Positions 2,052 to 41,431 of a stretch of DNA of 64,000 nucleotides are shown piece by piece. The stretch is from assembly GCA_004283055.1 (NCBI GenBank), contig SHLP01000006.1, forward strand, positions 5,131 to 69,130, in the 5' to 3' direction. The position numbers were made by a program, and so were the translations under genes. The notes below the pieces were generated by a model. It did not search any database and was not told the origin of the DNA. It saw nothing but the letters and a program-made list of their open reading frames with translations. Every line of letters begins with the position of its first letter. Position 1 is the first letter of the stretch. The stretch comes from Deltaproteobacteria bacterium (GTDB taxonomy: Bacteria; Myxococcota_A; Polyangia; Polyangiales; Houyiibacteriaceae).

Positions 2052-2927
2052 ATGAAATTCAGTGCGTCCATCGCCATGGCGCCGCCGGAGCAGTACGTGC
2101 CTGTGGCTCGAGAGGCGGAAAGACTCGGCTACCACGCCATCGTCCTCCCAGATTCGATCTTCTTTTCCGAGGAGGTCAGCAAGCCATACCCCTACACTCA
2201 GGACGGCAGTCGAATGTGGGACGGCGAGACACCGTGGATCGAGCCAATCGTCGGTGCGGCCGCGATGGCAGGCGCCACCGAATCGATCTTCTTCTATACG
2301 AGCGTCGTGAAGCTGCCCGTGCGCCATCCGGTTTTGGTAGCGAAGCAAGTCGCTTCTCTTGCGGTGCTTTCGAATAACCGTTTTGGCTTCGGCTGCGGTC
2401 TCGGTTGGTTGCCCGAAGAATTCAAATGGTGCGGCACGGAGTTCGAGACACGCGGAAAGCGCATGAACGAGTGCCTGGACATCCTCCGCCTCATCTGGGG
2501 AGGCGGAATGGTCGAATACCACGGCGAGCACTATGATTTCGGAAAGATTCAGATGAGCCCGGCGCCCAGCAAGCCGATCCCGATCTACATCGGCGGCCAT
2601 AGCAAGCCCGGGCTTCGACGCGCAGCGAAGTACGGCGACGGCTGGTCGTCGGCGATGCTCAAGTCGAAAGAGCTCATCGAGTTAGTGCGCCAGATCGAGG
2701 TCTTTCGAAAGGAGTACGGACGCAGCCATCTGCCGATGGAATATCAGGCGGTCGTTACCGACGTTTGGGACGCGGACGGCTTCAAGCGTCTCGAAGACGC
2801 CGGCGTGACGGACATCATTACCGTGCCATGGCTCATGTACGGGACGCCCATGGTAGGTGGGGACCTACAGGGTCGAATCGATGGCTTGAACCGATTTGCG
2901 GACACCGTGATCGCCAAGATGCAATGA
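2052..2927 (+). CDS. LLM-class (luciferase-like) F420-dependent oxidoreductase
   Basis: 291-aa ORF with a luciferase-like TIM-barrel pattern (LGYHAIVLPDS, RFGFGCGLGWLPEEF, IPIYIGGHS). It lies directly upstream of cofG and is coupled to it by an ATGA overlap. Confidence 0.7.
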   Translation: MKFSASIAMAPPEQYVPVAREAERLGYHAIVLPDSIFFSEEVSKPYPYTQDGSRMWDGETPWIEPIVGAAAMAGATESIFFYTSVVKLPVRHPVLVAKQVASLAVLSNNRFGFGCGLGWLPEEFKWCGTEFETRGKRMNECLDILRLIWGGGMVEYHGEHYDFGKIQMSPAPSKPIPIYIGGHSKPGLRRAAKYGDGWSSAMLKSKELIELVRQIEVFRKEYGRSHLPMEYQAVVTDVWDADGFKRLEDAGVTDIITVPWLMYGTPMVGGDLQGRIDGLNRFADTVIAKMQ

Positions 2928-4066
2928 GCTCGAGGCCTTCGATTCTCGAGAGCGCGCGCGTCGGCCCGGTCACTGAGCCGGCTGCCTATCAGTTGAGCGC
3001 CATGGACACTGGCGCGCTCTGCGAGCTGGCGCGTGAAAGGCGCGATCGCGCGTGGGGCAAGACCTTGACCTACTCGCCCAAGGTGTTTCTGCCGATCACG
3101 AACCTCTGTCGGAACCGCTGCGACTATTGCTCGTTTCGCCGCTCGCCGGGCGATCCCGGTGAATGGACGATGAGCCCGGTGGAGGTTCGCGATTGGCTTC
3201 ATCGCGCACGCGATCGAGGTTGTGTCGAAGCCCTCTTCTGCCTCGGCGACACGCCCGAGACGGGCTTTCGCGATTATCGTGCCTTGCTACGCTCCTGGGG
3301 TCACCAGCAAACCGTCGACTATCTTCGCTGGGCTGCAGAAGAAGCGCTGGCTGCAGGACTACTCCCGCACACCAATGCCGGGATTCTTTCGCGCAAAGAC
3401 ATGATCGCCCTCAAGCCCGTGAACGTTAGCCTCGGCCTGATGCTCGAAAACGTGAGCGAGCGTTTGTGTGAGAAGGGCATGCCGCACCATCGAGCGCCCG
3501 ACAAGCGTCCGGCCAAGCGCATCGAGATGACGCGACAAGCCGGCGAGCTTCGGATTCCCTTCACCTCGGGCATCTTGGTCGGAATCGGAGAGACGCTCGA
3601 AGAGCGAGTGGACACCATCCTGGCGATTCGGCGTCTTCATCGCGCGTACGGGCATATCGGCGAGGTCATCGTTCAGAACTTTCGCTCGCATCCCGAGACA
3701 CCGATGGGGCACAGCCGTGAACCCAGCGCCGATGGGCTCGCTGCCACCGTTGCGTTGACGCGACTCATCCTGGACGACGAGGTCAGCGTTCAGGCGCCCC
3801 CCAACCTCAACCCGGCGTCGACCGCCACTCTGATTCATGCGGGAATCAACGATTTCGGCGGCATTTCCCCGGTGAGCCCAGACTACATCAACCCGCAGCA
3901 TCCCTGGCCGTACCTCGAACGACTTCGCGAGGCTTGCGCGGCTGAAGGGTTTAGACTCGAACCTCGCTTGCCGGTATATCCTCAGCACCTCGAAGCGCAC
4001 GGCTTCGTCGACTCCTCTCTTCGCCCGAGCATCGATCGGCTTCAGATGGAGCTTGCCACGCCATGA
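2924..4066 (+). CDS. cofG: FO synthase subunit 1 (7,8-didemethyl-8-hydroxy-5-deazariboflavin synthase, radical SAM)
   Basis: The internal ATG at 2924 overlaps the upstream stop (ATGA), so the longer 2765 start was rejected. Radical-SAM CxxxCxxC motif CRNRCDYCSF. Confidence 0.85.
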   Translation: MSSRPSILESARVGPVTEPAAYQLSAMDTGALCELARERRDRAWGKTLTYSPKVFLPITNLCRNRCDYCSFRRSPGDPGEWTMSPVEVRDWLHRARDRGCVEALFCLGDTPETGFRDYRALLRSWGHQQTVDYLRWAAEEALAAGLLPHTNAGILSRKDMIALKPVNVSLGLMLENVSERLCEKGMPHHRAPDKRPAKRIEMTRQAGELRIPFTSGILVGIGETLEERVDTILAIRRLHRAYGHIGEVIVQNFRSHPETPMGHSREPSADGLAATVALTRLILDDEVSVQAPPNLNPASTATLIHAGINDFGGISPVSPDYINPQHPWPYLERLREACAAEGFRLEPRLPVYPQHLEAHGFVDSSLRPSIDRLQMELATP

Positions 4067-5328
4067 CAACCGCCCTCGAAACCTGTCTCCAGGGCGTCAC
4101 GGCCGAGATTCGCGCGATCCTCGAGCAAAGCCTCGACGGCGATGAGCTCAGCATCGAGCACGGCGTGAAGCTCAGCGGTGCACGGGGCAGCGATCTACAG
4201 GCCCTGTGCATGGTTGCCGACGAGCTCCGACGACAGCAAGTGGGCGACCGAGTCACCTACGTGATCAACCGAAACATCAACTTCACCAACGTCTGCATCA
4301 AGAACTGTAAGTTCTGCGCGTTCGCACGCAGCGTCCGTTCGGAGCAAGGTTACTTCCTTCCCAAGGAAGAGGTCGTACGGCGTGTAGTTCAAGCCTGGGA
4401 GATGGGCGCCACCGAGGTCTGCCTGCAGGCCGGGCTCTCGCCCAACCTCACAGGCGACAGCTACATCGATCTCTGCCGAGTGGTGAAGGATGCCGCGCCG
4501 GAGATTCATATTCATGCCTTCTCGCCCGAGGAGGTGAAATTCGGCGCTTCACTCAAGCGCGTTTCGTACGCGGAGTATTTGACGGAGCTACTCGATGCCG
4601 GCCTAGGGACCCTCCCTGGCACCTCGGCCGAAATCCTGGACGACCGCCTTCGCAAGACGATTTCACCGACGCGAATCACGACGCGCGAATGGCTCGACGT
4701 TGTTACCGCCGCCCATCGCCTGGGCATCCGAACGACATCGACCATGATGTTTGGGCACGTCGAGTCCGTCGAGGACCGCATTCGCCACATGGACCTTCTG
4801 CGAAGAGTGCAGCGAGAGACAAACGGGTTCACCGAGTTCGTTCCGCTCTCGTTCGTCCACGAGGAGGCTCCGCTTTTCGCAGCGAGCCAGGTGCCCGGGG
4901 TTCGTCCGGGGCCCACGGGTGACGAGGTGCTGCGGCTCTACGCAACGGCGCGCCTCATGCTCGGCCGAGACATTCCAAACCTTCAAGCGTCGTGGGTCAA
5001 AGAAGGCCTTCGGACCTCGCAGCTCTTACTCGGCTGCGGGGTGAACGACCTCGGCGGGACATTGATGAATGAAAGCATCTCCACGGCCGCTGGTGCGCGC
5101 CATGGGCAGCTGATGAGCCCGGCGACCTTGCGCAGAGTCATTCGAGACTCAGGGCGGGTGCCGGTGCAGCGCGATACGAGCTACGGTACGATCCGCGAGT
5201 TCGGGGACTCACCCGATGAGGACCCGATTGAGCCCCTCGATTCGATCCGAGATCCGGATGCAGTGTTTGGCTCGTACGATGCGCTGACCATGGACTCGCG
5301 CTTTCACTACGAGCCGCGCTCGGTCTAG
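4063..5328 (+). CDS. cofH: FO synthase subunit 2 (radical SAM)
   Basis: 421-aa ORF with an ATGA overlap to cofG. Radical-SAM motif CIKNCKFCAF. CofH/MqnC-like pattern. Confidence 0.85.
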   Translation: MTTALETCLQGVTAEIRAILEQSLDGDELSIEHGVKLSGARGSDLQALCMVADELRRQQVGDRVTYVINRNINFTNVCIKNCKFCAFARSVRSEQGYFLPKEEVVRRVVQAWEMGATEVCLQAGLSPNLTGDSYIDLCRVVKDAAPEIHIHAFSPEEVKFGASLKRVSYAEYLTELLDAGLGTLPGTSAEILDDRLRKTISPTRITTREWLDVVTAAHRLGIRTTSTMMFGHVESVEDRIRHMDLLRRVQRETNGFTEFVPLSFVHEEAPLFAASQVPGVRPGPTGDEVLRLYATARLMLGRDIPNLQASWVKEGLRTSQLLLGCGVNDLGGTLMNESISTAAGARHGQLMSPATLRRVIRDSGRVPVQRDTSYGTIREFGDSPDEDPIEPLDSIRDPDAVFGSYDALTMDSRFHYEPRSV

Positions 5329-5354
5329 TCCCTGCGGACTCAGGCGCTAGAAAA

Positions 5355-5951
5355 CTAGCGTCGCCGTAGTCGGTCGAGGTCGGACGGCCGGTCGACGTCG
5401 AATCCGATGGTGCTGCTGATCTGAATGCGAACGGTGAGACCGAGTCTGCACGCGCAGGCATGATGTCGGTCGAGGCTGTCCTCGTGTCCGAGGCAGCTTG
5501 GTAAGGCAGTCGCCGGCTTGACGGCGATGACATTGGTGCCTCGCTGCGCGAGGTCGGGCACCAGCACGACGTCGCTTTCCTCGAGTTGGCGCACCACGCG
5601 AGCAACACCGTCTACCGTCAGCTCCGGGAGGTCGCTCATACAGATCAACACGCTCGTCGCGCCGCGATCCTTCAAATCCTCGAGCGCTCCGTCAACGACC
5701 TCGGCCAAGCCTCGGCTTCCTGGGGCATCCGCGAGCGCTAGCGCACCCAGCCCCTCGGCGAGCTCCCGAGCTTGGGCGGAGTCGCTCACCGCGGCGATGG
5801 CGTCGATGTCCGGGGATGCCCGAAGGACCCGCACCACGTGTTCAAACAATCCGCGCGCCAACTCGGCGCGCTCGGCCTGCCCCAGCACTTCCGAGAGCCT
5901 CGACTTGCCTCGGTCGAAACTCTTGATGGGAACTAACGCCCAGCGGCTCAT
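5355..5951 (-). CDS. cofC: 2-phospho-L-lactate (or PEP/3PG) guanylyltransferase
   Basis: 198 aa. It shows the N-terminal [16 protein letters not shown] motif, SDLPEL and a GTN motif typical of CofC/FbiD. It has a 4-nt overlap with cofD. Confidence 0.75.
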
Positions 5952-6883
5952 TTCAGTTTCCGCGCGAACGCGATCAGCTCGCCGGCAAAGCGTACTCGAT
6001 CATCTATGGTTTGAATGTGTACGTTCGTTTCGAGGGTCGGGTAGGGCGCCTCGAAGGAATCTCCCGGGTGAACAGCGTATCCACCGAGCAGGTCTTCGTA
6101 GTGCGCCGCTACGGCCTCGGCCGAAGGCGGGCGCCCGTCGATCTCCGAAATCATCGCGGCGAGCGGGCCCTTGACCGCCTTGCCACCCAGAATCGGGCTC
6201 ACCGCAACCGTCGGCTTGAGCCGAACCGCTTCTTTTATTCCCGTCAAACCCAGGATGGGATCGATCGAAACGTAAGGGTTCGAAGGGCAAATCACGATCA
6301 AATCGGCGAGGTTCAGGGCATCGACAACCGAGCGGGTCGTTTCACCGCTGCCCCCGTGGCGGACGTTGCTCACCGGAAGCGCCGCCCGCTCCTTCACGAG
6401 CCACTCCTGAAACGCGAGCTCCTCGCCGCGCCTAGTGAGGATGGTCGTAGGACATGGCTCATCGCTCATCGGGAGAATCGGCCGCTCGACTCCGAGGGCT
6501 TTGCACAGGGTTGCAGTCGTTTGCGTGAGCGACTTGCCTCCCGACATAGCTTTCGTTCGGAAGAGGTGCGTGACCAGATCGCGGTCGCCGAGTTGAAACC
6601 AGTCGTCGACGCCGCGGCGCCTCGCTTCGCCCAGGACTTCGAATGTGTCGCCGCCGATTCCCCAGCCGCGGTCTTCGGGAGCAAGACCTGCGAGGGTGTA
6701 CATGACCGTATCGAGATCAGGGCTTATGTGGAGGCCCCAATGCTCGAAGTCATCGCCGGTGTTCACAACGGCCGTGAGCGAGCCTGGGGGGAGCACGCGA
6801 TCGAGCCCGTCGATGAGCCTCGCGCCGCCGACGCCTCCGGCCAGCGCGACGACAGACAGACCGTTCTCAGAACCGCCGGTCAT
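5948..6883 (-). CDS. cofD: LPPG:FO 2-phospho-L-lactate transferase
   Basis: The start was moved to the internal ATG at 6883, which forms an ATGA overlap with the cofE stop. N-terminus [13 protein letters not shown]...[26 protein letters not shown]. Confidence 0.85.
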
Positions 6884-7695
6884 GCGTACAAGTCGTTTTC
6901 CGGATCTCGGAGCAAGACTGCCGCGGAATCGTGTGACGCTTTGAAATGCAGCCCGCGAACCAAAGTCACCGGACGCCCCTCGTTGGCTTGCCCCGCGACG
7001 AGATCTGCTGCGGCCGCCACCGAATCTGCGACGGCCGATTCCGTGGCTTGCAGGACGCGACCATGGCGATCGACCGCACCGCGCCGGTCCCATACGGCGG
7101 GCAGCCCCGCAACTCCAAGCGCAAATCCCACGGTTCCCCGTCGAAATGGGCGTCCCCACGAGTCGGTAACGAGGACCGCGACCTCCGAGCCGTAGCGTTC
7201 GCAGAGTTTGCCGCGAAGCGACGCTGCACTCGCATCGGGATCGCGCGGCAAGGTCAGCACCCAGGGGCCGCTTCCCTGTGGCGCGCCCGAGGGCGCCGCG
7301 TTGCTCGAGTCGATACCAGCGTTGGCCGAAATGAAACCGAGACGGTGCCGGACGATCAGAGCGCCGCTGGTCTTCCTGGAGATGCCTACGCTCTCCCGCA
7401 AGATCAGCTCGACGAGGCGCGGGTCCTTCTCGAGCTCCATGCCGAGTTGAACGGCTGTATCGCCCGGAACGATGCTGCCCAAATCAACGAAACAACCTTC
7501 CGCACGCGAGACGATCTTGCTCGCGACGACGAGCACGTCACCGTCGGCAAGATCGATCTCTGCGCGTTCGAGGCTGGAGACGATCACCTCGTAAAGGTCA
7601 TCACCTACCTCGATCGTTGGTACGCCGGCGACGGTGCGAACCCAGAGCTCCGGCCCGACGCGAAGGTCGCCCGAACCCGGGTCGGCGCGGCTCAT
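6880..7695 (-). CDS. cofE: F420-0:gamma-glutamyl ligase, short form without the FbiB-type C-terminal nitroreductase domain
   Basis: The start was moved to the ATG at 7695, which forms an ATGA overlap with the npdG stop. 271 aa. Pattern [10 protein letters not shown]...[16 protein letters not shown]. Confidence 0.85.
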
Positions 7696-8348
7696 TCGGT
7701 CTCCGGAATGCCCGTAATACGAATCCCCGAGCCCACGCTCTTGTAGCGGCGATTGATGTGCAGGAGCACTGGCGTGATGGACTCGAGGGCGATAGCGTTC
7801 TTCAATACGCCTGCGTCGATGCCACGAAGGCCCAAGTCCGCGACCAGTGAAATCACGATCGCGCGAGCCTCTTTGTCGTTTCCGCAGACCAGCACATCGC
7901 AGTCGAAGGTATGCTCGGGATCGCCGAGGTGTTCGGAGCTTATGTGGTGCAGTGCCGCAACGAGCCGTGCGCCTTCGTTGAGCAAGGCACGGGCTTCCAA
8001 GGCGGCAGCTTGGCCTTCCGGCAAGTTGACGGAACGAACCTTGGGAGGCTGCAGAGGCACTGTGATGTCGACGATGACCTTTTCGCCGACGACATCCTTG
8101 ATCGAGTCGAACGTGGGTCGATGCGCGCTGTACGGCACCGTGACGATGATGAGCTCGGCGTACTCGCACGCTGCGCTGTTGTCGGCACCTTGGATGCTGA
8201 CTCCAAACTCCTCCGAGAACTCAGCGGCCTTTGCCGCTCCCTTTTCCGCTTGGCGCGAGCCGATGAACACGTCGTGCCCTGCCTTGGCCCAGCGAACGGC
8301 CAAGCCACGACCCTCGCGCCCGGTTCCACCTACGATTCCAATCTTCAT
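7692..8348 (-). CDS. npdG: NADPH-dependent F420 reductase
   Basis: The internal ATG at 8348 gives MKIGIVGGTGREGRGLAVRWAKAGHDVFIGSR, a Rossmann N-terminus typical of Fno/NpdG. It lies 7 nt downstream of the LLM gene. Confidence 0.8.
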   Translation of the reverse strand: MKIGIVGGTGREGRGLAVRWAKAGHDVFIGSRQAEKGAAKAAEFSEEFGVSIQGADNSAACEYAELIIVTVPYSAHRPTFDSIKDVVGEKVIVDITVPLQPPKVRSVNLPEGQAAALEARALLNEGARLVAALHHISSEHLGDPEHTFDCDVLVCGNDKEARAIVISLVADLGLRGIDAGVLKNAIALESITPVLLHINRRYKSVGSGIRITGIPETE

Positions 8349-8355
8349 TGCTGCC

Positions 8356-9405
8356 TCACGAGTTGAGCTCAGCCATGAAGCGGAGCGTGTCCATGTCCTG
8401 GGAACCAACCATCAGAGTTCCTACCGGCGAATCCTTCCAGCGCTGAAAGCGATCGCGAATTCGGTCTTTCGAGCCCACGAGGTAGAGCGCGTCGACCAAT
8501 TCGTCGGGGACGGCTGCAATGGCTTCATTGCGCTTGCCGTCGAGGAAAAGCGCCTGGACTTTTTCACAGGCTTCCTCGAAGCCGACGAGGCTTAGGTAGT
8601 CCTTGTAGAAGTTCTTCTTCTTCGACCCCATGCCCCCGATGTAGAGCGCGAGCTGCATCTTGCAAGGCATCATTGCGTGCTCCGGGTCTCCGATGATCAC
8701 CACGACTGTGGGCGCGATGTCGAAGGTGTCCACGCCCTTTCCGTTCCCGGCCTTAGCGAACCCCTCGTTGAAGTTCTTCATTAGAACTTCGGGGCGCTCC
8801 GGGTGCATACAGGTCAGCAAGCAACCATCCGCGATTTCGGCGGACATCGCCTGGGACTTCGGGGCCATCGAGCCCGTGAAGACCGGAATGTCCGCTCTGG
8901 CGCGTATCATGCTGCGAAGCGGCTTGCCCTGACCCGAAGAGCCCGGGCCGTGATACGGAATTTGGTAGCGTATCCCGTCGAACTCGAGCGGAGATTCCCG
9001 CGCGAAGATGTTCTTCACGATGGTGACGTATTCGCGAAGCCAGGTGAGTGACTTGTTGAAGGGCACGCCATGCCAACCTTCTACGACCTGTGGGCCCGAC
9101 GTTCCGAGCCCCATGATGAAGCGCCCGTTCGAGAGGATGTCCATCGTCATTGCCGTCATCGCAGCATTCGCAGGCGAGCGGCCAGGGAGCTGCATGATCG
9201 CGGTGCCCAACTTGATTGTCGACGTCTGAGACCCGACCCAGGCAAGCGGTGTGACCGCGTCGTTGCCCCAGGACTCCGCCGTCCATATCGAGTCGTACCC
9301 AAGCCGTTCGACTTCGGAGATCTTCTCGATGTCTACGAGCCCCTGAACGGTCGTGTTCAACTGAGGGCCCGCATACCCAAGCGTCAGACCAAGCTTCATC
9401 CGCAA
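8356..9405 (-). CDS. LLM-class F420-dependent oxidoreductase; resembles the Rv3520c-type family as I recall it
   Basis: 349 aa. MKLGLTLGYAG...LGYDSIWTAESWGNDAVTPLAWVGSQT...GLGTSGPQVVEGWHG. It is the first gene of the LLM-npdG-cofE-cofD-cofC operon. Confidence 0.7.
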   Translation of the reverse strand: MRMKLGLTLGYAGPQLNTTVQGLVDIEKISEVERLGYDSIWTAESWGNDAVTPLAWVGSQTSTIKLGTAIMQLPGRSPANAAMTAMTMDILSNGRFIMGLGTSGPQVVEGWHGVPFNKSLTWLREYVTIVKNIFARESPLEFDGIRYQIPYHGPGSSGQGKPLRSMIRARADIPVFTGSMAPKSQAMSAEIADGCLLTCMHPERPEVLMKNFNEGFAKAGNGKGVDTFDIAPTVVVIIGDPEHAMMPCKMQLALYIGGMGSKKKNFYKDYLSLVGFEEACEKVQALFLDGKRNEAIAAVPDELVDALYLVGSKDRIRDRFQRWKDSPVGTLMVGSQDMDTLRFMAELNS

Positions 9406-9413
9406 CTCCCACC

Positions 9414-9438
9414 AAAAAAGGGGACAGTCCCCTTTTTG
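9414..9438. other. Perfect palindrome AAAAAAGGGGAC-A-GTCCCCTTTTTG (terminator-like hairpin) in a divergent intergenic region
   Basis: Read directly from the sequence. The GGGGAC/GTCCCC arms are flanked by an A-tract and a T-tract. It lies 8 nt upstream of the LLM start codon at 9405. Confidence 0.6.
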
Positions 9439-9464
9439 AATTCGCGGCCGACCCTACCAGGAAG

Positions 9465-9478
9465 AAGAACGTGTTTCA
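9465..9478. promoter_or_regulatory. KstR-type operator candidate AAGAACGTGTTTCA
   Basis: Fits nnnAACnnGTTnnA. It is intergenic, 60 nt from the LLM start (9405) and 38 nt from the epimerase start (9516). Confidence 0.5.
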
Positions 9479-9515
9479 ATTTGAAGCGGGCGCTGCCGCA
9501 GGTCAGCCTGCCCCC

Positions 9516-10493
9516 ATGCGCGTGCTCGTCACTGGAGCCTTCGGGCGCCTTGGTCGCGAGGGCATGAACCGCCTCTTGCTCGAGGGGGATTCCGTGATCG
9601 CCTTCGACGTTCCGAACCGACGAAATCGAAGGCTCGCGAAGCGCTTCGCCGACCGAGCACGAATCGTCTGGGGCGATATCCGGTCCGCTGCTGACGTCGA
9701 CGCGGCCGTCGCGAGCTGCGACGCAATCATTCACAACGCCGGAGTCCTGGCGCCAGCCTCCGAGCTTCACCCCGAGCTCGCATACGCGGTCAACGTGGAA
9801 GGGACGAAGAACATCATCGCCGCGATCAGGCGCGAAAAGGCCCCACCCATCATCGTTTTCGCATCGTCACTGGCCGTCTGCGGCCCCCGCCTGCCCGGTG
9901 GTCCGCCACTCACCGGCGACCTCCCTGCCATTGCGACCGACAACTACACGTCGAACAAAGCGGAGTGCGAACGACTTCTCCGCGAGTCGGGCCTTCCGTA
10001 CGTCATCCTTCGAATCGGCGTGTCGGTGGGCCTACGGGCAGCCGCCGGTGATCTCTCGCCGGACGTTTTTCGCGTGCTCTTCAGCATCAACCCGGACACG
10101 CGTCTCGAATGGATTCATCCGGAGGATGTCGCCCTTGCGCAGATTCGAGCGATCAAGCGTCGAGGAGCACTTCGAAAGACATTGATGATTGGAGGCGGCG
10201 AAAGGTGCCGGCTCACATTCCGCGAATTCTACGGCGCAATGTTTGAAGCGACTGGGGTAGGGCGTTTTCCGCCCGAAGCGTATGGGAGCGGCGCGTACTA
10301 CTGCGATTGGCTGAACACCGACGAAAGCGAATCGCTATTGCACTACCAGCGCACGAGCTTCGATGAGTTCATCGCGCAAATGCGCAAGGAGTCACGACTC
10401 ACCCGGCCATTCGTTCGGATGCTCGCGCCGCTCATCCGCGCGTACATGCTGCGCTACTCGGATGCTTGGCAAAACAGGAGCAGGCGAGCCTAG
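9516..10493 (+). CDS. NAD(P)-dependent epimerase/dehydratase family protein (atypical SDR)
   Basis: The start was set at the internal ATG giving MRVLVTGAFGRLG (Rossmann motif). YTSNK catalytic motif. Confidence 0.7.
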   Translation: MRVLVTGAFGRLGREGMNRLLLEGDSVIAFDVPNRRNRRLAKRFADRARIVWGDIRSAADVDAAVASCDAIIHNAGVLAPASELHPELAYAVNVEGTKNIIAAIRREKAPPIIVFASSLAVCGPRLPGGPPLTGDLPAIATDNYTSNKAECERLLRESGLPYVILRIGVSVGLRAAAGDLSPDVFRVLFSINPDTRLEWIHPEDVALAQIRAIKRRGALRKTLMIGGGERCRLTFREFYGAMFEATGVGRFPPEAYGSGAYYCDWLNTDESESLLHYQRTSFDEFIAQMRKESRLTRPFVRMLAPLIRAYMLRYSDAWQNRSRRA

Positions 10494-10494
10494 G

Positions 10495-11277
10495 TCAAGC
10501 GCGCTGGCTCGATACTGAGAGCACCTCGCCGGTCATGTACGAGCTGTAGTCGCTGGCCAAGAAGACCATCACGTTTGAGATTTCCCACGGTTCGGCGCCT
10601 CGCCCGAACGCCTCGCGTTTCTGCAGGTCCTCTAATAGGCCCGGCGGAGTGACCTTTTCGAGGAATGGGTGCATCGCGAGCGATGGAGAAACACAGTTGA
10701 TGCGGACGTTGCGTTCAGCGGCCTCGATCGCCGCGCAGCGCGTCAGGGCCATGACGCCTGCTTTTGCAGCCGCGTAGTGCGATTGACCCTCTTGCGCACG
10801 CCAGCCGAGCACCGAAGCGTTGTTGACGATGGCGCCCTTGCCTCGCGGCATCATGTGCTTGAGCGCAGCCCGGGTGCAGCGAAAGCAGCCGTTGAGCGTC
10901 ACGTCCAGCACCACGTTCCACTGATCGTCGGTCATGTCGATGACCTTTGCGTAACCGCCGAGCCCGGCGTTGTTCATGAGGACGTCCACGTGCCCCATCT
11001 TGTCGACTGCGAGCTCGAACATCGTCTGCACTTCGTCTTCCTTGGTGACGTTGCAAAGGACGATTTCGGGGCGCACCCCCGTTTCAGCCTCGACTTTGTC
11101 GGCTGCCTCCCCGAGTCGCCGCTCGTGAATGTCGCTAATCACCAGCCCTGACGCCCCTTCTTCGGCGCAGCGAACGGCTGTCGCAAAGCCGATGCCCGTC
11201 CCCGCCGCGGCAGTGATGAGAACGTTCTTGCCTTTGAGCAGGCCGTGGCCGCCGACATACGTGGGTTTGCTGTTCAT
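10495..11277 (-). CDS. SDR family oxidoreductase
   Basis: 260 aa. TAAAGTGIG glycine motif and YAAAK catalytic motif. It is the last gene of the 16308-to-10495 operon. Confidence 0.8.
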   Translation of the reverse strand: MNSKPTYVGGHGLLKGKNVLITAAAGTGIGFATAVRCAEEGASGLVISDIHERRLGEAADKVEAETGVRPEIVLCNVTKEDEVQTMFELAVDKMGHVDVLMNNAGLGGYAKVIDMTDDQWNVVLDVTLNGCFRCTRAALKHMMPRGKGAIVNNASVLGWRAQEGQSHYAAAKAGVMALTRCAAIEAAERNVRINCVSPSLAMHPFLEKVTPPGLLEDLQKREAFGRGAEPWEISNVMVFLASDYSSYMTGEVLSVSSQRA

Positions 11278-12449
11278 CGCGGCTCCTTCGGCAGCCCGAG
11301 TCCTCGTTCGCCAATGATGTTTCGTTGGATCTGATTGGAACCCGCGTAGATCGTGTCAGCCCGTGAAAACAGGCACCACTTCTGCATGGCGGTAAGCTCA
11401 TACGGCGCCGCATCGAGCAGCTCGGCTTCCGGGCCGAGCACATCCATCGCGAGCTTGCCTAGGTCGCGATGCCAATTCGACCAGTAAAGCTTGCTGATCA
11501 GCGCTTCTCGGTTCAGATCCGCACCTTCGTGTTCCAGCATTCGAAGCGCGTTGACGCGCATGATTCTGAGGCCGATCGCGGCGTTCGCGATTCGCTGCCT
11601 GAGGATGGGGTCCTTTGCAGCTCCCGATTCTCGTGCGGCAGCGACGACCTGCTCGAATTCCTTCTGAAAGAGGTACTGCTGACCGAGCGTTGACGCTCCC
11701 CGCTCGAAGGCAAGCGTGCCCATGGCGACTTTCCACCCGTTGTTGACGCCGCCGACGAGATGATTCTTTTCTGCCTTGGCACCGTCGAAGAAAACCTCGG
11801 CGAACTCCGCGCTCCCGCTCATTTGTCGGATCGGGCGCACTTCGATGCCTTGCTGTTTCATCGGAACGAGAAGGCAGCTGATGCCGCGGTGCTTCGCGGC
11901 TTCTGGGTCGGTCCGGCAAAGAACGAAGCACCAGTCCGAGTACTGCGCACCCGAGGTCCAAATTTTTTGGCCCTCGATGATCCACTCGTCACCGACCAAT
12001 CTGGCTTTGGTCTGGACGTTGGCCAGGTCAGATCCCGCGCCGGGCTCCGAGTAGCCCTGACACCAAATTTCTTCGCCCGAGACAATCGGCGGTAGGAAAC
12101 GTTTCTGTTGCTCCGTCGAGCCAAAATGAATCAGGGTCGGTCCTAGAAGCGTCTCGCCGATGTGGCCAACGTTGCCCGGCCCGTTCGCGCGCACGTATTC
12201 CTCGTTGAACACCGCCTCTTCCTTGATCGAGCATCCGCGGCCGCCAAACGCCTTGGGCCAGCCAATGCAGTTCCAGCCAGCAGCGCCCATGACCCTGCCC
12301 CAGGCCACCCGCTCCTCGACGTAGCGGTCTTGGTCGCCGGAGGCGCCTCGGCCCTGCAGCTCTTTGAAGGGGCCATTGAGCTGCTCTTCCAACCAGGCGC
12401 GCGCCTCCTGACGGAACGCCTCTTCTTCGTCGCTTAGCTGTATCTCCAT
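11274..12449 (-). CDS. Acyl-CoA dehydrogenase family protein (C-terminal IYAGSNQIQRNII)
   Basis: The start was moved to the ATG at 12449, which forms a TGATG overlap with the upstream ACAD stop. N-terminus MEIQLSDEEEAFRQEARAWLEE. Confidence 0.85.
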   Translation of the reverse strand: MEIQLSDEEEAFRQEARAWLEEQLNGPFKELQGRGASGDQDRYVEERVAWGRVMGAAGWNCIGWPKAFGGRGCSIKEEAVFNEEYVRANGPGNVGHIGETLLGPTLIHFGSTEQQKRFLPPIVSGEEIWCQGYSEPGAGSDLANVQTKARLVGDEWIIEGQKIWTSGAQYSDWCFVLCRTDPEAAKHRGISCLLVPMKQQGIEVRPIRQMSGSAEFAEVFFDGAKAEKNHLVGGVNNGWKVAMGTLAFERGASTLGQQYLFQKEFEQVVAAARESGAAKDPILRQRIANAAIGLRIMRVNALRMLEHEGADLNREALISKLYWSNWHRDLGKLAMDVLGPEAELLDAAPYELTAMQKWCLFSRADTIYAGSNQIQRNIIGERGLGLPKEPR

Positions 12450-13594
12450 CACAAACCCATCTGCGCTGCGACTCGCTCGCGGTGAAAGGCGGGGCCCCCG
12501 AAGAGATTCTCGGTCGCCTTGGCTCGCTTGAAGTAAAGGTGTGCGGGGTGCTCCCAGGTGAAGCCAATCCCGCCGTGGATCTGAATCATTTCGGAGGCGC
12601 AGTGAAAGAAGGCATCTGAGCAATACGCCTTGGCGCTCGACGCCGCCTCCTCGAGGCTTTCGCCACCCTGCGTCGCCAGAGCACTCGCGTAGAACGCGGC
12701 GGATCGCGCCGACTCCACCAACGTCAGCATATCCGCACACTTGTGCTTGATCGCCTGGAACGAGCCGATCGGCCTTCCGAACTGCTTGCGCACCTTCGCG
12801 TACTCGACCGACATTTCAAGACACATCTCAGCGGCGCCCACTTGCTCCGCTGCGAGCGCAATTCGGGCGAGGTCCAGTGTCCTTTCGCAAAGCCACCAAC
12901 CTTTTCCTTCGTCGCCGAGCAGGGCGTCGTCGGGCACCGTCACTTCCAAGAGCTCGACGGATGCCATCCGCCGGGTCTGATCCATCGTTGGCAGCCACTT
13001 GCGTTTTAGCCCGTCCGCGTCCTTGGGCACCAGGAACAAGCTTACGCCATGGGGACCCGTGCCCGCGCTCCGCTCCGAGCGCGCTGCGACGATCAAGAGA
13101 TCGGCTGTGTGCCCGTCGAGCACGTAGCTCTTGGCGCCGCTGAGCAGGTAGCCGGCGCCGTTTCGTACGTAGCTCGCTTCGACACCGGCGGCGTCCATTC
13201 GGCCGTTCGTTTCTGCGAAGGCGAGAGTGGCCCGCGTTTCTCCGGCGGCAATGCCCGGGAGATAGAGCTCCTTCTGGGCTTCGCTCCCGCCGATCATGAG
13301 CGCATTGGCACCCAAACCAACGGTCGATAGAAACGGGGCGCAGAGCAGTGCGCGCCCGATCTCTTCCATCAACGGATGCAAGTCGAGGTAGCTCAGGCCG
13401 AGGCCGCCGTATTCCTCAGGAATGGTGAGCGCTGTCCACGCGAGCTCCTCCGAGAGCTGCGCCCAGGTTGCCGGGTCGTAGCCTCGCTCCGTTTCCATTG
13501 CGCTCCGAACACGAGCCTCAGAGGACGCCACCTCCAAGAAGCGTCGAGCGGCTCGTCTGAGCTCGTTCTGATCTTCCGAGAATGAAAACTCCAT
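12449..13594 (-). CDS. Acyl-CoA dehydrogenase family protein (partner subunit type)
   Basis: 381 aa. MEFSFSEDQNELRRAARRF...IHGGIGFTWEHPAHLYFKRA. Confidence 0.85.
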   Translation of the reverse strand: MEFSFSEDQNELRRAARRFLEVASSEARVRSAMETERGYDPATWAQLSEELAWTALTIPEEYGGLGLSYLDLHPLMEEIGRALLCAPFLSTVGLGANALMIGGSEAQKELYLPGIAAGETRATLAFAETNGRMDAAGVEASYVRNGAGYLLSGAKSYVLDGHTADLLIVAARSERSAGTGPHGVSLFLVPKDADGLKRKWLPTMDQTRRMASVELLEVTVPDDALLGDEGKGWWLCERTLDLARIALAAEQVGAAEMCLEMSVEYAKVRKQFGRPIGSFQAIKHKCADMLTLVESARSAAFYASALATQGGESLEEAASSAKAYCSDAFFHCASEMIQIHGGIGFTWEHPAHLYFKRAKATENLFGGPAFHRERVAAQMGL

Positions 13595-13598
13595 CCCC

Positions 13599-14381
13599 TC
13601 AGTCTCCTTGGTTCACGCTAGCGGCCGAAATGAAAGCGGGTGTTTCGCCGCCGCCATGAAGCACGAGATTCGCCCCGCTCACGTACGAGGCAAGAGGCGA
13701 GGCAAAAAACATGCACGCTCCTGCAACGTCGTCGGGCGTGCCGAGACGCTGTAGCGGCACGGTGCGTGCGACGCGCGCGATGCCATCCCCGTCGCCATAG
13801 TGAAGATGCGCCTGCTCGGTTCGAATCAGCCCCGCCGCGATCGAATTGACACGCACTTTGGGCGCCCATTCGATTGCAAGCGTCCCGGTCAGGTTGATCA
13901 GCCCGGCCTTGGCTGCGCCGTAAGCCGCTGTTCCGGGGGAAGGCCGCACCCCGGATACGCTGGCGATGTTGACGATCGAACCGCCTGACTCCTGAGCCTG
14001 CATGATGCGGTTCGCTTGCTGGGCGCAATGAAGGGCGGCGGTGAGGTTGAGCTGAATGATCTTTTCCGAGAACCGCGGAGAGGCCGTCGCTGCTTCCGCG
14101 AAGGGCGCGCCTCCGGCGTTGTTGACTAGCACGTCGAGCTGCCCGAGACGTTCGACGGTTTCGTCAACCATCTTTTCCACTTGTTTCGAATCCCGCACGT
14201 CGGCGCTCACGAACGATACTTTGTTGCCGCCAGCGCTTGGGAGCTCGTCGGGCTCGGTGCGCCCGCACACGGCGACCTTGGCGCCTGCTGCGAGGAACGC
14301 CTCAGCGATGCCCCGGCCAATTCCCCGGCTCCCGCCCGTGACCAGGATGGCTCTACCGACGAAGTCGAAGGGGTTGCTCAT
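13599..14381 (-). CDS. SDR family oxidoreductase
   Basis: 260 aa. VTGGSRGIG and YGAAK motifs. Confidence 0.8.
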   Translation of the reverse strand: MSNPFDFVGRAILVTGGSRGIGRGIAEAFLAAGAKVAVCGRTEPDELPSAGGNKVSFVSADVRDSKQVEKMVDETVERLGQLDVLVNNAGGAPFAEAATASPRFSEKIIQLNLTAALHCAQQANRIMQAQESGGSIVNIASVSGVRPSPGTAAYGAAKAGLINLTGTLAIEWAPKVRVNSIAAGLIRTEQAHLHYGDGDGIARVARTVPLQRLGTPDDVAGACMFFASPLASYVSGANLVLHGGGETPAFISAASVNQGD

Positions 14382-15289
14382 GTTCCGTACACTTTGACCG
14401 GTGGCTGCGCCTTGGATAGAAGCTCATCGACCGCCGTTCCCAGCGCGCCCGCATCCCATCGCTTGCTGATGGTCATCGTCTGCTCACGCCGGTAGCCGTC
14501 GAAGACTGTGACCGTGCCGCCAAAGACCTCCCAGACGCGCCCCGTGACGTCGCGCGACTGCGAGCTTGCAAGCCAGGCGACGAAGGGCGAGACATTGGCT
14601 GGGTCGTTCTCGTCGAAACCCTCGTCGGGCGCTTTCATGGCATCGCCGAACGCGCCTTCGGTCATTCGGGTCCGCGCAATCGGGCAAATTGCGTTCGCCG
14701 TGATGCCGTATCGACCGAGCTCGGCGGCCTGCACGAGAGTCAGCGTTGCGATGCCCGCCTTCGCCGCAGAGTAACTCGACTGACCGACGCTCCCGAGGAC
14801 TCCGGCGCCCGAGCTGGTATTGATGATACGCGCATCGACCTGCTCCCCGGCTTTGACGAGCCCTCTCCAATACGCAGCAGCGTGCCGAGACACACAAAAG
14901 TGCCCCTTGAGGTGAACCCGGATCACCGCATCCCATTCCTCTTCGCTACAGCTCACGAACATGCGGTCCCGGACGAAGCCTGCGTTGTTGACCACTGCAT
15001 CGAGTCGTCCGAACTCGTCGATGGCTTGCCGGACGAGCTCCTTGGTCTGTGCCCAATCCGCGACGTCCGCCCCGTTGGCCACGGCCTCTCCGCCCGAGTC
15101 GCGAATCGTCTGAACGACTTCGTCCGCCGGCCCGTGACCGCCGCCCTCGCCGCTGTTGCTCACGCCGAGGTCGTTCACCACGACTTTCGCGCCTTGTCGC
15201 GCGAGCTCGAGCGCATGCTCACGGCCGATGCCGCGACCTCCGCCGGTTACGATTACTACCCGTCCATCACAAATGCCAGTCATTCTCAA
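14378..15289 (-). CDS. SDR oxidoreductase, MFE-2/Hsd4A-like (3R)-hydroxyacyl-CoA dehydrogenase type
   Basis: 303 aa. VIVTGGGRGIGREHALELARQGAKVVVNDLG and YSAAK motifs. 4-nt overlaps on both sides. Confidence 0.7.
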   Translation of the reverse strand: MRMTGICDGRVVIVTGGGRGIGREHALELARQGAKVVVNDLGVSNSGEGGGHGPADEVVQTIRDSGGEAVANGADVADWAQTKELVRQAIDEFGRLDAVVNNAGFVRDRMFVSCSEEEWDAVIRVHLKGHFCVSRHAAAYWRGLVKAGEQVDARIINTSSGAGVLGSVGQSSYSAAKAGIATLTLVQAAELGRYGITANAICPIARTRMTEGAFGDAMKAPDEGFDENDPANVSPFVAWLASSQSRDVTGRVWEVFGGTVTVFDGYRREQTMTISKRWDAGALGTAVDELLSKAQPPVKVYGT

Positions 15290-16308
15290 ACCTCTGCGTC
15301 GGCCAGCTTGACCAACAGTTTCCCCCGATGTTCACCGCTGAACAGCCGAAGCAGATGAGCTGGAGCCTCGTCCAGACCTTCGACGATTTCATCGCGATAG
15401 CGAATCCTGCCCTCGCGGATCCATCGCGCGAGATCTGCCCGTGCCTCGTCGTATCGGGAAGCGAAATCCAAGGTAGTGAAGCCCTCCATGCGGGCGCTCT
15501 TCGCCAGGAGCCGGAGATAGTTGCTTGGTCCGGGTGGAAGCTTCGCATCGTTGATCTGTGAGATCGCGCCGCAAACCACCACCCGGCCGTGGTGGTTGAG
15601 ACGGGTCAGCGCCGTGTTGAGTATCTCCCCGCCGACGCTGTCGAAGAATACGTCGATGCCGTCTGGGCAGGCCTCATCCATGGCGGGGCGCAGGTTTGTC
15701 GTCTTGTAGTTGATTGCGGCATCGTAACCGAGCTCGTCGGTTAGCCAGGAGCACTTCTCATCGCTGCCCGTCAGTCCGACGGCCCGACACCCCTCGAGCT
15801 TTGCGATCTGGCCGACGATCGAGCCGACCCCACCTGCGGCGGCAGACACCAGCACGGTTTCGCCTTTTGTTGGTTTCCCGACCGCGAGCAAACCAAAGTA
15901 TGCTGTCAGCCCGGTTCCACCGAGGACGCTCAACATCGTAGAGAGGGGGATCCCCTCGATCGTCCTCACATTGCCGTGAAGCATTCGAGAGGAGACGACG
16001 CTGTACGATTCCCAGGCGGCTAACGCCTGCACGACTTGCCCAACCGACCAGCCCTCCGCTTTGGACTCAATGATCTCGGAGAGGGCTCCGCTCCGAATCG
16101 GCTCGCCGATCCCGATCGGAGGCAGGTACGATTTCGCCTCACTCATCCAGCCGCGTATCGCGGGGTCGATCGAAAGGTACAGGTTCTTGAGCAAGACCTC
16201 CCCGGCCGCGGGTACGCCTAGCGGAGCCTCCGCCTCCTCGAAATCCCCAATCGCCGGCACCCCAACCGGTCGCTTCCTCAACAAAATCTGCCGATTAACC
16301 TCCAACAC
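15286..16308 (-). CDS. NADP-dependent medium-chain reductase (YncB/alkenal double-bond reductase type)
   Basis: 340 aa with a GTG start. LYLSIDPAIRGWM and AAAGGVGSIVGQIAK motifs. Confidence 0.8.
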   Translation of the reverse strand: MLEVNRQILLRKRPVGVPAIGDFEEAEAPLGVPAAGEVLLKNLYLSIDPAIRGWMSEAKSYLPPIGIGEPIRSGALSEIIESKAEGWSVGQVVQALAAWESYSVVSSRMLHGNVRTIEGIPLSTMLSVLGGTGLTAYFGLLAVGKPTKGETVLVSAAAGGVGSIVGQIAKLEGCRAVGLTGSDEKCSWLTDELGYDAAINYKTTNLRPAMDEACPDGIDVFFDSVGGEILNTALTRLNHHGRVVVCGAISQINDAKLPPGPSNYLRLLAKSARMEGFTTLDFASRYDEARADLARWIREGRIRYRDEIVEGLDEAPAHLLRLFSGEHRGKLLVKLADAEV

Positions 16309-16320
16309 GCGACCTTAGAC

Positions 16321-16334
16321 TGAAACATGTTTCA
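16321..16334. promoter_or_regulatory. KstR-type operator candidate TGAAACATGTTTCA
   Basis: A 14-bp inverted repeat whose arms TGAAAC/GTTTCA are perfectly complementary around a non-palindromic central AT. It lies 13 nt upstream of the start codon at 16308. Confidence 0.6.
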
Positions 16335-16344
16335 CTTTCTGCAA

Positions 16345-16486
16345 GGGGACACGCTCCCTCTCTAAAACCTGCATGGTTCCCGATGCTTCGGACGCACAGC
16401 GCGAAAACCCGCTCGGACCTGGGTTTTCGCGGTGCGGGCCTTAAGTCCTTGAAAACGTGAGATTATTTGGGGTGGAGCGTGTCCCC
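16345..16486. repeat. REPIN-like element: two inverted ~66-nt REP units (GGGGACACGCTCC ... GCAC.CCGCGAAAACCC)
   Basis: The termini GGGGACACGCTCC (16345-16357) and GGAGCGTGTCCCC (16474-16486) are perfect inverted repeats. An internal hairpin is CGCGAAAACCC/GGGTTTTCGCG. The same unit occurs at 48614, 49342 and 50100-50162. Confidence 0.8.
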
Positions 16487-17451
16487 TAATTCCAGGTGAT
16501 GCCGCGCTGGTAGAGGACGGCGAGGTCCATGGTGAGGGCGATGGACCAGTGGAGGAGGGCGCCTAGGAAGAAGGAGCGGTGCCGGAGCGCGAGGTAGCCG
16601 AGGACGAACCCAGCGAGGATCGAGGCGTTCACCTCGAGGATCGGTTTTCCGTAGTGGCCGATGCTGTACATCATCACCATCCAGGGAAGGGCGCTCACGT
16701 CGAGGTCTCGGCCGAGGCCGAAGGTCATGAAGCCACGCCAAAAGCTCTCGCCCGAGAGAAAGACCATGAAGTAGGCGACCTGGTAGAGGATGAACAAGCG
16801 GATCGATGCCTCGGTGCCGCTGACGATGCCGCGGGTTTGTGGGTAGCTCGCTTGGAACTCGGGCAGGGCCGATGCCCACAAGACCAGCGGGACCATCACG
16901 ACGAAAAGGCCAAGATAGACCCAGCGCATCCGCGTCCCCCCGCGCACGACGTAGCCGTACTCGGCAGGCCGCTGTCGGAGTCTGAAGCGGAGGAGCAGGT
17001 ACGGAACTGCGAGCCGTAGCACTACGCTGCAGGTCGCGAAATACGCAAACCCGAACAACGGAGTTCGCACCCCTACCGGGACAAATCGCTCGAAAAGCAG
17101 TCGGTACGTATTGGAACGACCGAACGCCAAAAAAAGGATGAGCAGGAGCATCGAGCTGATCACGACGAACCGGGCTTCATGAGAAACGTCCGAGAAGCGA
17201 ATGCCCGTGAGCAAGCGAAGTAGACCGAAGTAGAACAGGCTGCCGGCAACGATGTAGAGCGCGATCGAGCTCGGCATCTGCCGCCCCCAGACGTGCCAGC
17301 TCCAGTTCAACGGCAGAAGCACAGCAACCGAAGCGGCCGCTACGCACCAGAATTGCCGGGTTCCAATCTCGATTCTTGCGTGGTCCAAGCGTTCGGCCAG
17401 CTCAGCCAAGCCGTTCGATGACCGCGGCCATGCCCTGGCCGCCGCCAACAC
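16486..17451 (-). CDS. Polytopic membrane protein, possibly CPBP (CAAX protease/Abi) family
   Basis: 321 aa and very hydrophobic. It has weak CPBP-like motifs (GESFWRG, YSIGH, HWSIALTMD). The annotated start overlaps the thiolase gene by 50 nt, so the true start is uncertain. Confidence 0.45.
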   Translation of the reverse strand: MLAAARAWPRSSNGLAELAERLDHARIEIGTRQFWCVAAASVAVLLPLNWSWHVWGRQMPSSIALYIVAGSLFYFGLLRLLTGIRFSDVSHEARFVVISSMLLLILFLAFGRSNTYRLLFERFVPVGVRTPLFGFAYFATCSVVLRLAVPYLLLRFRLRQRPAEYGYVVRGGTRMRWVYLGLFVVMVPLVLWASALPEFQASYPQTRGIVSGTEASIRLFILYQVAYFMVFLSGESFWRGFMTFGLGRDLDVSALPWMVMMYSIGHYGKPILEVNASILAGFVLGYLALRHRSFFLGALLHWSIALTMDLAVLYQRGITWN

Positions 17452-23798: not shown

Positions 23799-23812
23799 TG
23801 AAACGCGTTTCA
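23799..23812. promoter_or_regulatory. KstR-type operator candidate TGAAACGCGTTTCA
   Basis: Perfect palindrome about 30 nt upstream of the echA GTG. It is preceded by GGCTTGAC (a -35-like element at 23783-23790). Confidence 0.6.
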
Positions 23813-31606: not shown

Positions 31607-31620
31607 TAGAACACGTTTCA
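31607..31620. promoter_or_regulatory. KstR-type operator candidate TAGAACACGTTTCA
   Basis: About 40 nt upstream of the scp2 ATG. GGCTTGAC (31581-31588) lies 18 nt upstream, so the site would overlap a -10 position. Confidence 0.6.
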
Positions 31621-41417: not shown

Positions 41418-41431
41418 TAGAACACGTTCTA
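41418..41431. promoter_or_regulatory. KstR-type operator candidate TAGAACACGTTCTA (perfect palindrome)
   Basis: It lies in the divergent intergenic region between the amidohydrolase (start 41339) and the hsaA-like gene. Confidence 0.65.

Follow-up and report, generated by a model that had tools for sequence, protein, structure and literature searches.

In an uncultured marine myxobacterium, the genes for the maturation and recharging of cofactor F420 are packed into one predicted operon behind an F420-dependent oxidoreductase of the Rv3520c family, and the putative promoter of this operon overlaps a site resembling the operator of the mycobacterial repressor KstR. The operon lies at the left edge of a steroid-catabolic gene cluster in a 64 kb stretch of DNA (the window), to the whole of which all motif counts given here refer. 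Based on the sequence evidence, we favour, with moderate confidence, the view that KstR-type repression controls the promoter of the luciferase-like monooxygenase (LLM), the NADPH-dependent F420 reductase (Fno) and the enzymes of F420 tail assembly, that maturation and recharging of the cofactor would thereby be coupled to steroid catabolism, and that the substrate of the LLM is an intermediate of the ring C/D or CoA-ester part of the pathway. The host is a Polyangiales-type member of the Myxococcota known from a metagenome-assembled genome (MAG), and not an actinobacterium; identical proteins are found in several MAGs labelled Deltaproteobacteria, Myxococcales or Polyangiales.

The F420 operon and the operator on its promoter

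In order to assign the proteins, curated NCBIfam equivalog and subfamily cut-offs were used, and Pfam, PDB and Rfam were also searched. The F420 genes of the window fall into two units:

8356..9399, minus strand: first gene of the operon, for an Rv3520c-family F420-dependent oxidoreductase of the LLM class with 347 aa (TIGR03559, 362 bits against a cut-off of 335; Pfam Bac_luciferase)
7692..8348, minus strand: npdG/fno, NADPH-dependent F420 reductase (TIGR01915, 204 bits against 150)
6880..7695, minus strand: cofE, single-domain F420-0:glutamate ligase, 271 aa (TIGR01916, 245 bits against 181, residues 21-269 of 271)
5948..6883, minus strand: cofD, 2-phospho-L-lactate transferase (TIGR01819, 267 bits against 257)
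5355..5951, minus strand: cofC, guanylyltransferase, last gene of the operon (TIGR03552, 123 bits against 105)
2052..5328, plus strand: second F420 unit, LLM2 (Rv2161c family, TIGR03619)-cofG-cofH, with ATGA overlaps, convergent on cofC

The first-pass annotation, made from the sequence alone, had described the minus-strand genes as one packed transcription unit, and rereading of the junctions bore this out. The TGA stop codon of the LLM gene is followed by GGCAGCA (7 nt) and the ATG of npdG, and 4-nt ATGA overlaps join npdG to cofE, cofE to cofD and cofD to cofC; this spacing of co-directional genes, with one 7-nt gap and three 4-nt overlaps, is that expected of an operon. A terminator scan gave a single terminator-like match within the unit, inside cofC, which is within chance (2 found against 4.3 expected). 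The last gene converges on cofH across a gap of 26 nt. All five F420 biosynthesis enzymes exceed their equivalog cut-offs, CofG with 418 bits against 213 and CofH with 470 against 374.

The annotation had left the subfamilies of both LLM genes to a model search. In this search the first LLM passed the Rv3520c-family model, its residues 2-331 aligning to positions 1-324 of 325, with the next family (TIGR04024) at 186 bits, and the product of 2052-2927 fell into the Rv2161c family. The use of F420 or F420H2 as cofactor by the first LLM has indirect support, from its co-operonic fno and cofE/D/C genes and from its closest solved structures, which are F420-dependent Mer enzymes. Its start is likelier to be the ATG at 9399 than a TTG at 9405; a GGGAG Shine-Dalgarno sequence lies 6 nt upstream of the ATG, which is also the start called on 15 public contigs. 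The intergenic region is thus 9400-9515, in the place given for it earlier but with different bounds, as it had been drawn as 9406-9515 upstream of an LLM gene at 8356-9405. CofE lacks the C-terminal domain of FbiB, matching only positions 12-242 of the 449-position model NF009810 (193 bits against a cut-off of 304). Neither that domain nor a stand-alone nitroreductase is visible in the F420 cluster (2052-9399), and the single-domain CofE raises the question of the route by which dehydro-F420-0 is reduced, or of whether 2-phospholactate or 3-phosphoglycerate is used instead.

KstR (Rv3574) of M. tuberculosis and M. smegmatis is a TetR-family repressor with the operator TnnAACnnGTTnnA, and Rv3520c itself reportedly belongs to the KstR regulon. 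Sites of this family are placed non-randomly in the window. The pattern TNNAACNNGTTNNA has four exact matches against 0.34 expected, a number reached in none of 100 shuffles, and all four are intergenic, each before steroid-catabolic genes. These operators, the upstream region of the LLM gene and the gene of the likely regulator are as follows:

16321..16334, unstranded: perfect operator TGAAACATGTTTCA before the alcohol dehydrogenase (ADH)-short-chain dehydrogenase/reductase (SDR)-acyl-CoA dehydrogenase (ACAD) operon, exact match
23799..23812, unstranded: perfect operator TGAAACGCGTTTCA before the operon of the echA20-type gene, ipdA, ipdB, NMO, ACADs and thiolase, exact match
31607..31620, unstranded: perfect operator TAGAACACGTTTCA before the SCP2-chsH2-ltp2-ltp2-fadD-kshA-kstR genes, exact match
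41418..41431, unstranded: perfect operator TAGAACACGTTCTA between an amidohydrolase gene (minus strand) and hsaA-like-hsaE-hsaG-hsaF (plus strand), exact match
9465..9478, unstranded: KstR-type operator AAGAACGTGTTTCA, reading TGAAACACGTTCTT towards the LLM gene, one mismatch to TnnAACnnGTTnnA (the outer T on the LLM side is A)
9474..9479, minus strand: putative -35 hexamer TTGAAA of the LLM-F420 promoter, read by eye and invariant in five aligned relatives
9451..9459, minus strand: putative extended -10 element TGgTAGGGT, 17 nt downstream of the -35 hexamer, supported by conservation in 41 sequences
9501..9510, minus strand: upstream element CAGGCTGACC, 16 nt upstream of TCAAATTGAAAC, a constant gap; invariant in five relatives including locus L092
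37762..38340, plus strand: KstR-like TetR-family repressor, 192 aa, 2 nt after kshA (PDB and NCBIfam)

The half-sites of the four perfect boxes are TGAAAC or TAGAAC. Since matches to the loose pattern TNNAACNNGTTNNA with one mismatch occurred in the window at chance level (9 found against 9.5 expected), exact matches and the half-sites used in the window were adopted instead. With the stricter pattern built from these half-sites, TRRAACNNGTTYYA, and at most one mismatch, only the four perfect boxes and the site at 9465-9478 were recovered (5 against 0.60 expected), and all five fall in promoter regions of steroid or steroid-adjacent genes. The KstR-type site that the annotation had reported at this position is therefore the sole near-match besides the perfect boxes in the 64 kb. 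It agrees with TnnAACnnGTTnnA at 7 of its 8 specified bases and lies 66 nt upstream of the LLM ATG.

The repressor gene beside kshA clearly encodes a KstR homologue on sequence grounds, although public records name the product a generic TetR/AcrR regulator. Its best PDB match is M. tuberculosis KstR (5cw8/3mnl, E 2e-23, over the full length) as against 3e-4 for KstR2, and its sole NCBIfam match is the KstR model NF033703, at 125 bits and below the cut-off of 280. Together with the operators, these two matches justify the label KstR-type at the level of homology and operator architecture. We also noticed that the 90%-identity cluster holding this 192-aa protein is represented by an RlmK/L methyltransferase of 699 aa, which is the product of the next gene (38378-40483); the odd clustering is probably an artefact of a fused gene call.

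Read towards the LLM gene, the region upstream of it has the form CAGGCTGACC-N16-TCAAA-TTGAAA-CACGTTCTTCTTCC-TG-G-TAGGGT-leader-GGGAG-N6-ATG, in which TTGAAA-N17-TAGGGT with its TGn extension would make a good sigma-70-type promoter. The operator covers five of the six -35 bases and nine bases of the spacer. A sigma-70 and terminator scanner returned nothing useful in 9400-9515; the promoter was first read by eye and then tested by conservation. In a MAFFT alignment of five relatives, two islands were invariant, namely CAGGCTGACC and the stretch from -35 to -10, and the leader was variable. The upstream element, which is kept in L092 despite a different upstream gene, is a candidate for an UP-like element or for the binding site of a second regulator.

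A metagenome scan with the two invariant promoter strings then yielded 41 further loci with the same arrangement, in which an SDR gene and a gene resembling 3-beta-hydroxysteroid dehydrogenase (3-beta-HSD) on the opposite strand are followed by the promoter and LLM-fno-cofE-cofD-cofC. Together with the window and the four relatives already found, these loci gave 41 distinct promoter sequences. In this set conservation is 73-100% across the -35 hexamer, the TGn, the TA and the spacer, the TTGAAA hexamer having itself been part of the search pattern, as compared with about 35-70% in the first 15-20 nt of leader beyond the -10 element; the TG and the TA of the extended -10 element are each conserved in 93%, at fixed spacing. 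The operator, with the window included, is perfect in 8 sequences, carries one mismatch in 18 and two or more in 15. The outer base that departs from the consensus in the window is the least conserved operator position. Among individual relatives, L009 has a site identical to that of the window, L010 has changed only at the two free central bases, and L089 has the perfect form TGAAACACGTTCTA; the eight sequences with the perfect form are spread over several sub-clades.

Arrangements in related loci

The strongest evidence for a functional coupling, as far as sequence can provide it, is the recurrence of boxes and F420 genes in relatives whose gene order is otherwise different. The annotation had proposed a check of gene neighbourhoods in related genomes, and we observed the link between steroid genes or boxes and F420 genes in five different arrangements. 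The LLMs of the relatives concerned are 86% (L089), 80% (L090), 68% (L095), 68% (L093), 67% (L094) and 64% (L011) identical to that of the window; actinobacterial members of the family among the loci compared are 47-51% identical. The F420 operon and the SDR-ACAD-ACAD-SDR block remain syntenic down to 73% LLM identity.

In L090, the F420 genes follow an Rv3548c-type SDR gene by 9 nt, giving a co-directional string of 13 genes (SDR-fadD-thiolase-SDR-SDR-ACAD-ACAD-SDR-[9 nt]-LLM-fno-cofE-cofD-cofC) that has no 3-beta-HSD-like gene and in which the second gene, the fadD homologue, is immediately preceded by a perfect box. In L011, tandem perfect boxes precede CoA-transferase III (racemase-like)-SRPBCC-LLM-fno-cofE-cofD-cofC. 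A second tandem pair in the same locus (14705-18053), made of TAGAACACGTTCTA twice at 23 nt from start to start, heads a cytochrome P450 gene, cofG and cofH with overlapping stops and starts. The best PDB matches of this P450 are the steroid C26-monooxygenases CYP142 and CYP125 (E 1e-82), so that a homologue of steroid C26-monooxygenases appears to be co-operonic with FO synthase. A perfect box heads a hypothetical gene, a zinc-type ADH gene and cofG in L094. In L095, a perfect box lies between the FadD3 orthologue and the LLM gene, which here stands apart from cofEDC, with ring C/D-type genes and an ERG4/ERG24-type gene beside it.

That last gene (4584-5858 in L095) ends an operon of ring C/D-like composition, NMO-enoyl-CoA hydratase (ECH)-ACAD-ACAD-thiolase. 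In L093, a Byssovorax MAG, the LLM gene starts 14 nt after another ERG4/ERG24 sterol-reductase-like gene (8712-11029). Both neighbourhoods connect the reduction of sterol double bonds with F420 and the LLM, in a phylum, the Myxococcota, that is known for making sterols. A separate observation concerns gene starts. The boxes at 8440 in L011 and 2272 in L090 (..AACATGTT..) contain an ATG, at which the recorded gene of L090 and the longest open reading frame of L011 begin. Starts annotated beside ATG-containing operators may be wrong, or the transcripts may be leaderless.

Outside the myxobacterial loci, no strict box was found in about 70 LLM loci of other phyla, which held loose chance matches only. 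The LLM gene is not next to cof genes in 69 of the 80 LLM-family loci, and several of these stand behind ACAD pairs. In five marine loci of Halieaceae and other Pseudomonadales (L031, L032, L039, L074, L079), it directly follows a pair resembling ACAD_a-ACAD_b with no cof genes nearby; these gammaproteobacterial pairs are 31-37% identical to the pair of the window, which may point to a partnership of the LLM with heteromeric acyl-CoA dehydrogenases.

Alternative explanations and known systems

Several observations weigh against control of the operon by a steroid operator. One outer base of the site in the window departs from the consensus, and at least two mismatches are present in 15 of the 41 related promoters, whereas the box before the ADH-SDR-ACAD operon is perfect in all eight readable relatives, including three in which the LLM box has decayed. 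This comparison places the LLM-side operator under weaker constraint. L092 keeps the promoter but has lost the right half of the box, its 3-beta-HSD-like gene being replaced by unrelated genes, and no box was found in L091 or L093. In the window no KstR-type box lies upstream of LLM2-cofG-cofH, from which it follows that the committed step of FO synthesis would not be co-induced and that only the conversion of FO to F420 and the reduction of F420 would be. Lastly, the LLM gene adjoins cof genes without steroid context in 11 of the 80 loci (Alpha- and Gammaproteobacteria, Acidobacteria and Ca. Multivorans), which makes the pairing older than the steroid link. Our reading of the promoter set is that the ancestral promoter had a full operator, which most lineages including that of the window have kept or nearly kept, under less constraint than the core steroid operators.

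Could the resemblance at 9465-9478 have simply arisen from a TTGAAA hexamer? The left half-site does coincide with the promoter hexamer, and the loose pattern with one mismatch is met about as often as chance predicts (9 against 9.5). The strict pattern, however, adds this site alone to the four perfect boxes. With TGAAAC fixed by the -35 element, the right half-site would fall within one mismatch in about 1.5% of cases by our own calculation; moreover, the site is perfect in L089 and in eight of the 41 pooled promoters, and in L010 the only changes are at the two free central bases. We regard a chance match as all but excluded. A more serious alternative, which we nevertheless consider unlikely, is that the divergent 3-beta-HSD-like gene is the sole or main target of the operator, with the F420 operon as a housekeeping unit that has its own constitutive promoter and lies beside the cluster by chance. 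The ATG of that gene is only 38 nt from the box; L092, where the gene is missing, has kept the LLM promoter and lost half of the box, and the decayed boxes in 15 of 41 promoters and the box-free cofG/cofH unit of the window point the same way. Yet five of the six bases of the conserved -35 hexamer lie within the box, so that a dimer bound there could not spare the LLM promoter. The gene is also missing from L090, where the F420 operon is fused 9 nt behind a steroid operon, and perfect boxes stand before F420 genes or the LLM gene in L011, L094 and L095 without a 3-beta-HSD-like gene.

Somewhat less probable again, in our estimate, is that the LLM is a generic companion of F420 clusters with no steroid role, its membership of the Rv3520c family being a matter of paralogy. 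It could then be a housekeeping client of the cofactor or a biosynthesis accessory, for example one replacing the C-terminal reductase domain of FbiB for dehydro-F420-0. The occurrence of the same LLM beside cofG/H/D/E and fno without steroid genes in 11 of 80 loci of other phyla speaks for this, as do the single-domain CofE and the fact that no nitroreductase-type gene was seen in the cluster. On the other hand, 69 of the 80 family loci are not beside cof genes and several lie behind ACAD pairs, the LLM gene of L095 is separated from cofEDC and has its perfect box in common with fadD3, and M. tuberculosis has both full-length FbiB and Rv3520c. The boxes before cofG in L011 and L094 would also be left without explanation. 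The overlap of box and -35 element, together with the four arrangements that lack a 3-beta-HSD-like gene, is hard to reconcile with either of these last two alternatives.

Steroid-responsive control of the LLM-F420 promoter thus remains the reading that we prefer, and its mechanism might be as follows. The KstR homologue encoded beside kshA would bind 14-bp palindromes of the form T(GA/AG)AAC-NN-GTT(TC/CT)A. On the one-mismatch site at 9465-9478 it would cover the -35 element and part of the spacer and should block entry of RNA polymerase into the LLM gene, with the divergent 3-beta-HSD-like gene probably under the same control. A steroid-derived effector would free the repressor, and the LLM, Fno (which passes hydride from NADPH to F420) and CofC, CofD and CofE (which convert FO to F420-n) would be made together. 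The LLM would then carry out a redox step on a steroid-derived intermediate with F420H2 or F420. The fadD3 gene, the Rv3548c-type SDR gene and the ACAD pairs nearby suggest the ring C/D or CoA-ester part of the pathway. The proposal in the first-pass annotation that an F420-dependent step takes part in this pathway and that cofactor synthesis is co-induced with it thereby gains sequence support from the box on the -35 element, the KstR homologue and the recurring arrangements; its second half has against it the box-free cofG and cofH. Those of the checks suggested in the annotation that lend themselves to computation all turned out in its favour.

The closest known parallel is the mycobacterial KstR regulon. 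As in that regulon, a KstR-homologous repressor is encoded in the cluster of the window, the same operator architecture occurs in four perfect copies before steroid operons, and an Rv3520c-family LLM stands behind such an operator. The window differs in that its host is a myxobacterium whose repressor scores 125 bits against the equivalog cut-off of 280, in that its ring C/D genes carry KstR-type boxes, and in that its LLM gene is co-operonic with fno and cofE/D/C. Such an operon is not known from mycobacteria, where fbiA/B/C/D lie elsewhere. The non-actinobacterial clusters of CofC/D/E/G/H and Fno in Proteobacteria and Chloroflexi resemble the window in their separate cofG and cofH genes, single-domain CofE and fno with LLM-class genes, and the same LLM family stands beside cof genes in 11 of 80 loci of other phyla; the clusters of the window and of related myxobacteria, in contrast, are embedded in steroid genes with KstR-type operators ahead.

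In the literature on F420 together with steroids, KstR, Sterolibacterium or Myxococcota, we found no paper that treats the genes of F420 biosynthesis as members of a steroid regulon. Rv3520c is listed among the cholesterol genes of M. tuberculosis only as a possible or probable F420-dependent oxidoreductase, and a review of F420 from 2021 contains no occurrence of steroid, cholesterol or words beginning with Myxococc. This agrees with the statement in the first-pass annotation that no report of a coupling of F420 biosynthesis genes to a steroid regulon was known; the sole precedent for co-location that we found is a figure legend on Sterolibacterium denitrificans, which places cofC, cofD and cofE directly beside the steroid genes ACS3-isomerase-ECH-SDR-ACAD-ACAD-SDR, without comment (PMC6678751). 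The neighbourhood of these cof genes by SDR-ACAD-ACAD-SDR (SEDNCHOL_10763-10772) is, as given in that legend, nearly that of the window (PMC6678751). S. denitrificans differs in being a betaproteobacterium with an oxygen-independent pathway, and the legend lists no LLM, fno or KstR-type operator (PMC6678751). What appears to be new here, judged from sequence, is the occurrence of a KstR regulon in a further phylum and its extension to the supply of a cofactor.

The steroid cluster and the meaning of the operon

The annotation had placed a lipid or steroid cluster directly to the right of the F420 operon. This was confirmed, with kshA, hsaEFG, fadD3, ipdAB and other genes identified from about 9.5 kb onwards. 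The two gene units next to the operon, and a further element of the LLM leader, are:

9516..10493, plus strand: NAD-dependent epimerase/3-beta-HSD-like SDR, divergent from the LLM gene (Pfam 3Beta_HSD and Epimerase; NCBIfam matches weak)
10495..16308, minus strand: steroid-type operon ADH(Zn)-SDR-SDR-ACAD-ACAD-SDR, with a perfect box at its head; the last gene is PRK07831, an Rv3548c-type equivalog
9415..9437, unstranded: perfect palindrome AAAAAGGGGAC-A-GTCCCCTTTTT, within the 5' leader ahead of the LLM gene; its RNA fold has an energy of -21.6 kcal/mol (z-score -2.35)

The supercluster spans about 9.5-48.6 kb (9516-48614) and is actinobacterial in style. It encodes a CasG-like steroid-CoA ligase, a thiolase, FadD3 (equivalog, 769 bits against 657), an EchA20-type hydratase, IpdA/IpdB-type CoA transferases, an NMO-type reductase and several ACAD pairs. 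Also present are SCP2 and ChsH2/Ltp2-type genes, KshA with Rieske and KshA_C domains, an HsaA-like oxygenase (408 bits, just below the cut-off) and HsaE/G/F. Housekeeping leu/ilv genes lie beyond 50 kb, and an IS200/Y1-type transposase gene (Pfam Y1_Tnp, 49440-50099) stands between the right end of the cluster and malic-enzyme and leu/ilv genes. The ring C/D genes (echA20-type, ipdAB, fadD3) carry KstR-type boxes in the window; in mycobacteria these genes are under the control of KstR2. Horizontal transfer of the supercluster from Actinobacteria seems likely. No paper on steroid catabolism in Myxococcales was found.

The leader palindrome is present once in the window and in 20 of 46 related leaders, 7 of which have more than one copy; compensatory variants such as GGGGTCTGACCCC occur, and loops are flipped among copies, with examples in L105, L121, L122, L104 and L117. 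A known RNA element or riboswitch was considered and rejected, as there was no Rfam match and the palindrome is missing in L009 and L089. Its behaviour resembles that of a small mobile or repeat hairpin, inserted in variable copy number, more than that of a riboswitch; an attenuator, an mRNA stabiliser or an element of the repetitive extragenic palindromic type are candidate roles.

On the evidence of its genes and operators, the window documents an apparently KstR-controlled 9,10-seco steroid pathway of actinobacterial style in abundant sediment myxobacteria. A wider generalisation, which we put forward tentatively and consider possible rather than probable, is that F420 serves as a dedicated cofactor for a conserved redox step of bacterial steroid or sterol ring metabolism carried out by Rv3520c-family LLMs, and that several lineages, Polyangiales-type myxobacteria and possibly Sterolibacterium among them, have wired cofC/D/E, cofG/H and fno into their steroid regulons. 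If true, this would be the first defined physiological role of F420 outside Actinobacteria, Chloroflexi and methanogens, and would give a function to Rv3520c in the cholesterol catabolism of M. tuberculosis. The finding raises the questions of which steroid-derived intermediate the LLM reduces or oxidises with F420, and of whether F420 is made on demand. An operon under a steroid operator makes the physiological role of F420 in aerobic non-actinobacteria an experimental question; both this role and the function of Rv3520c become directly testable through the operon of the window.

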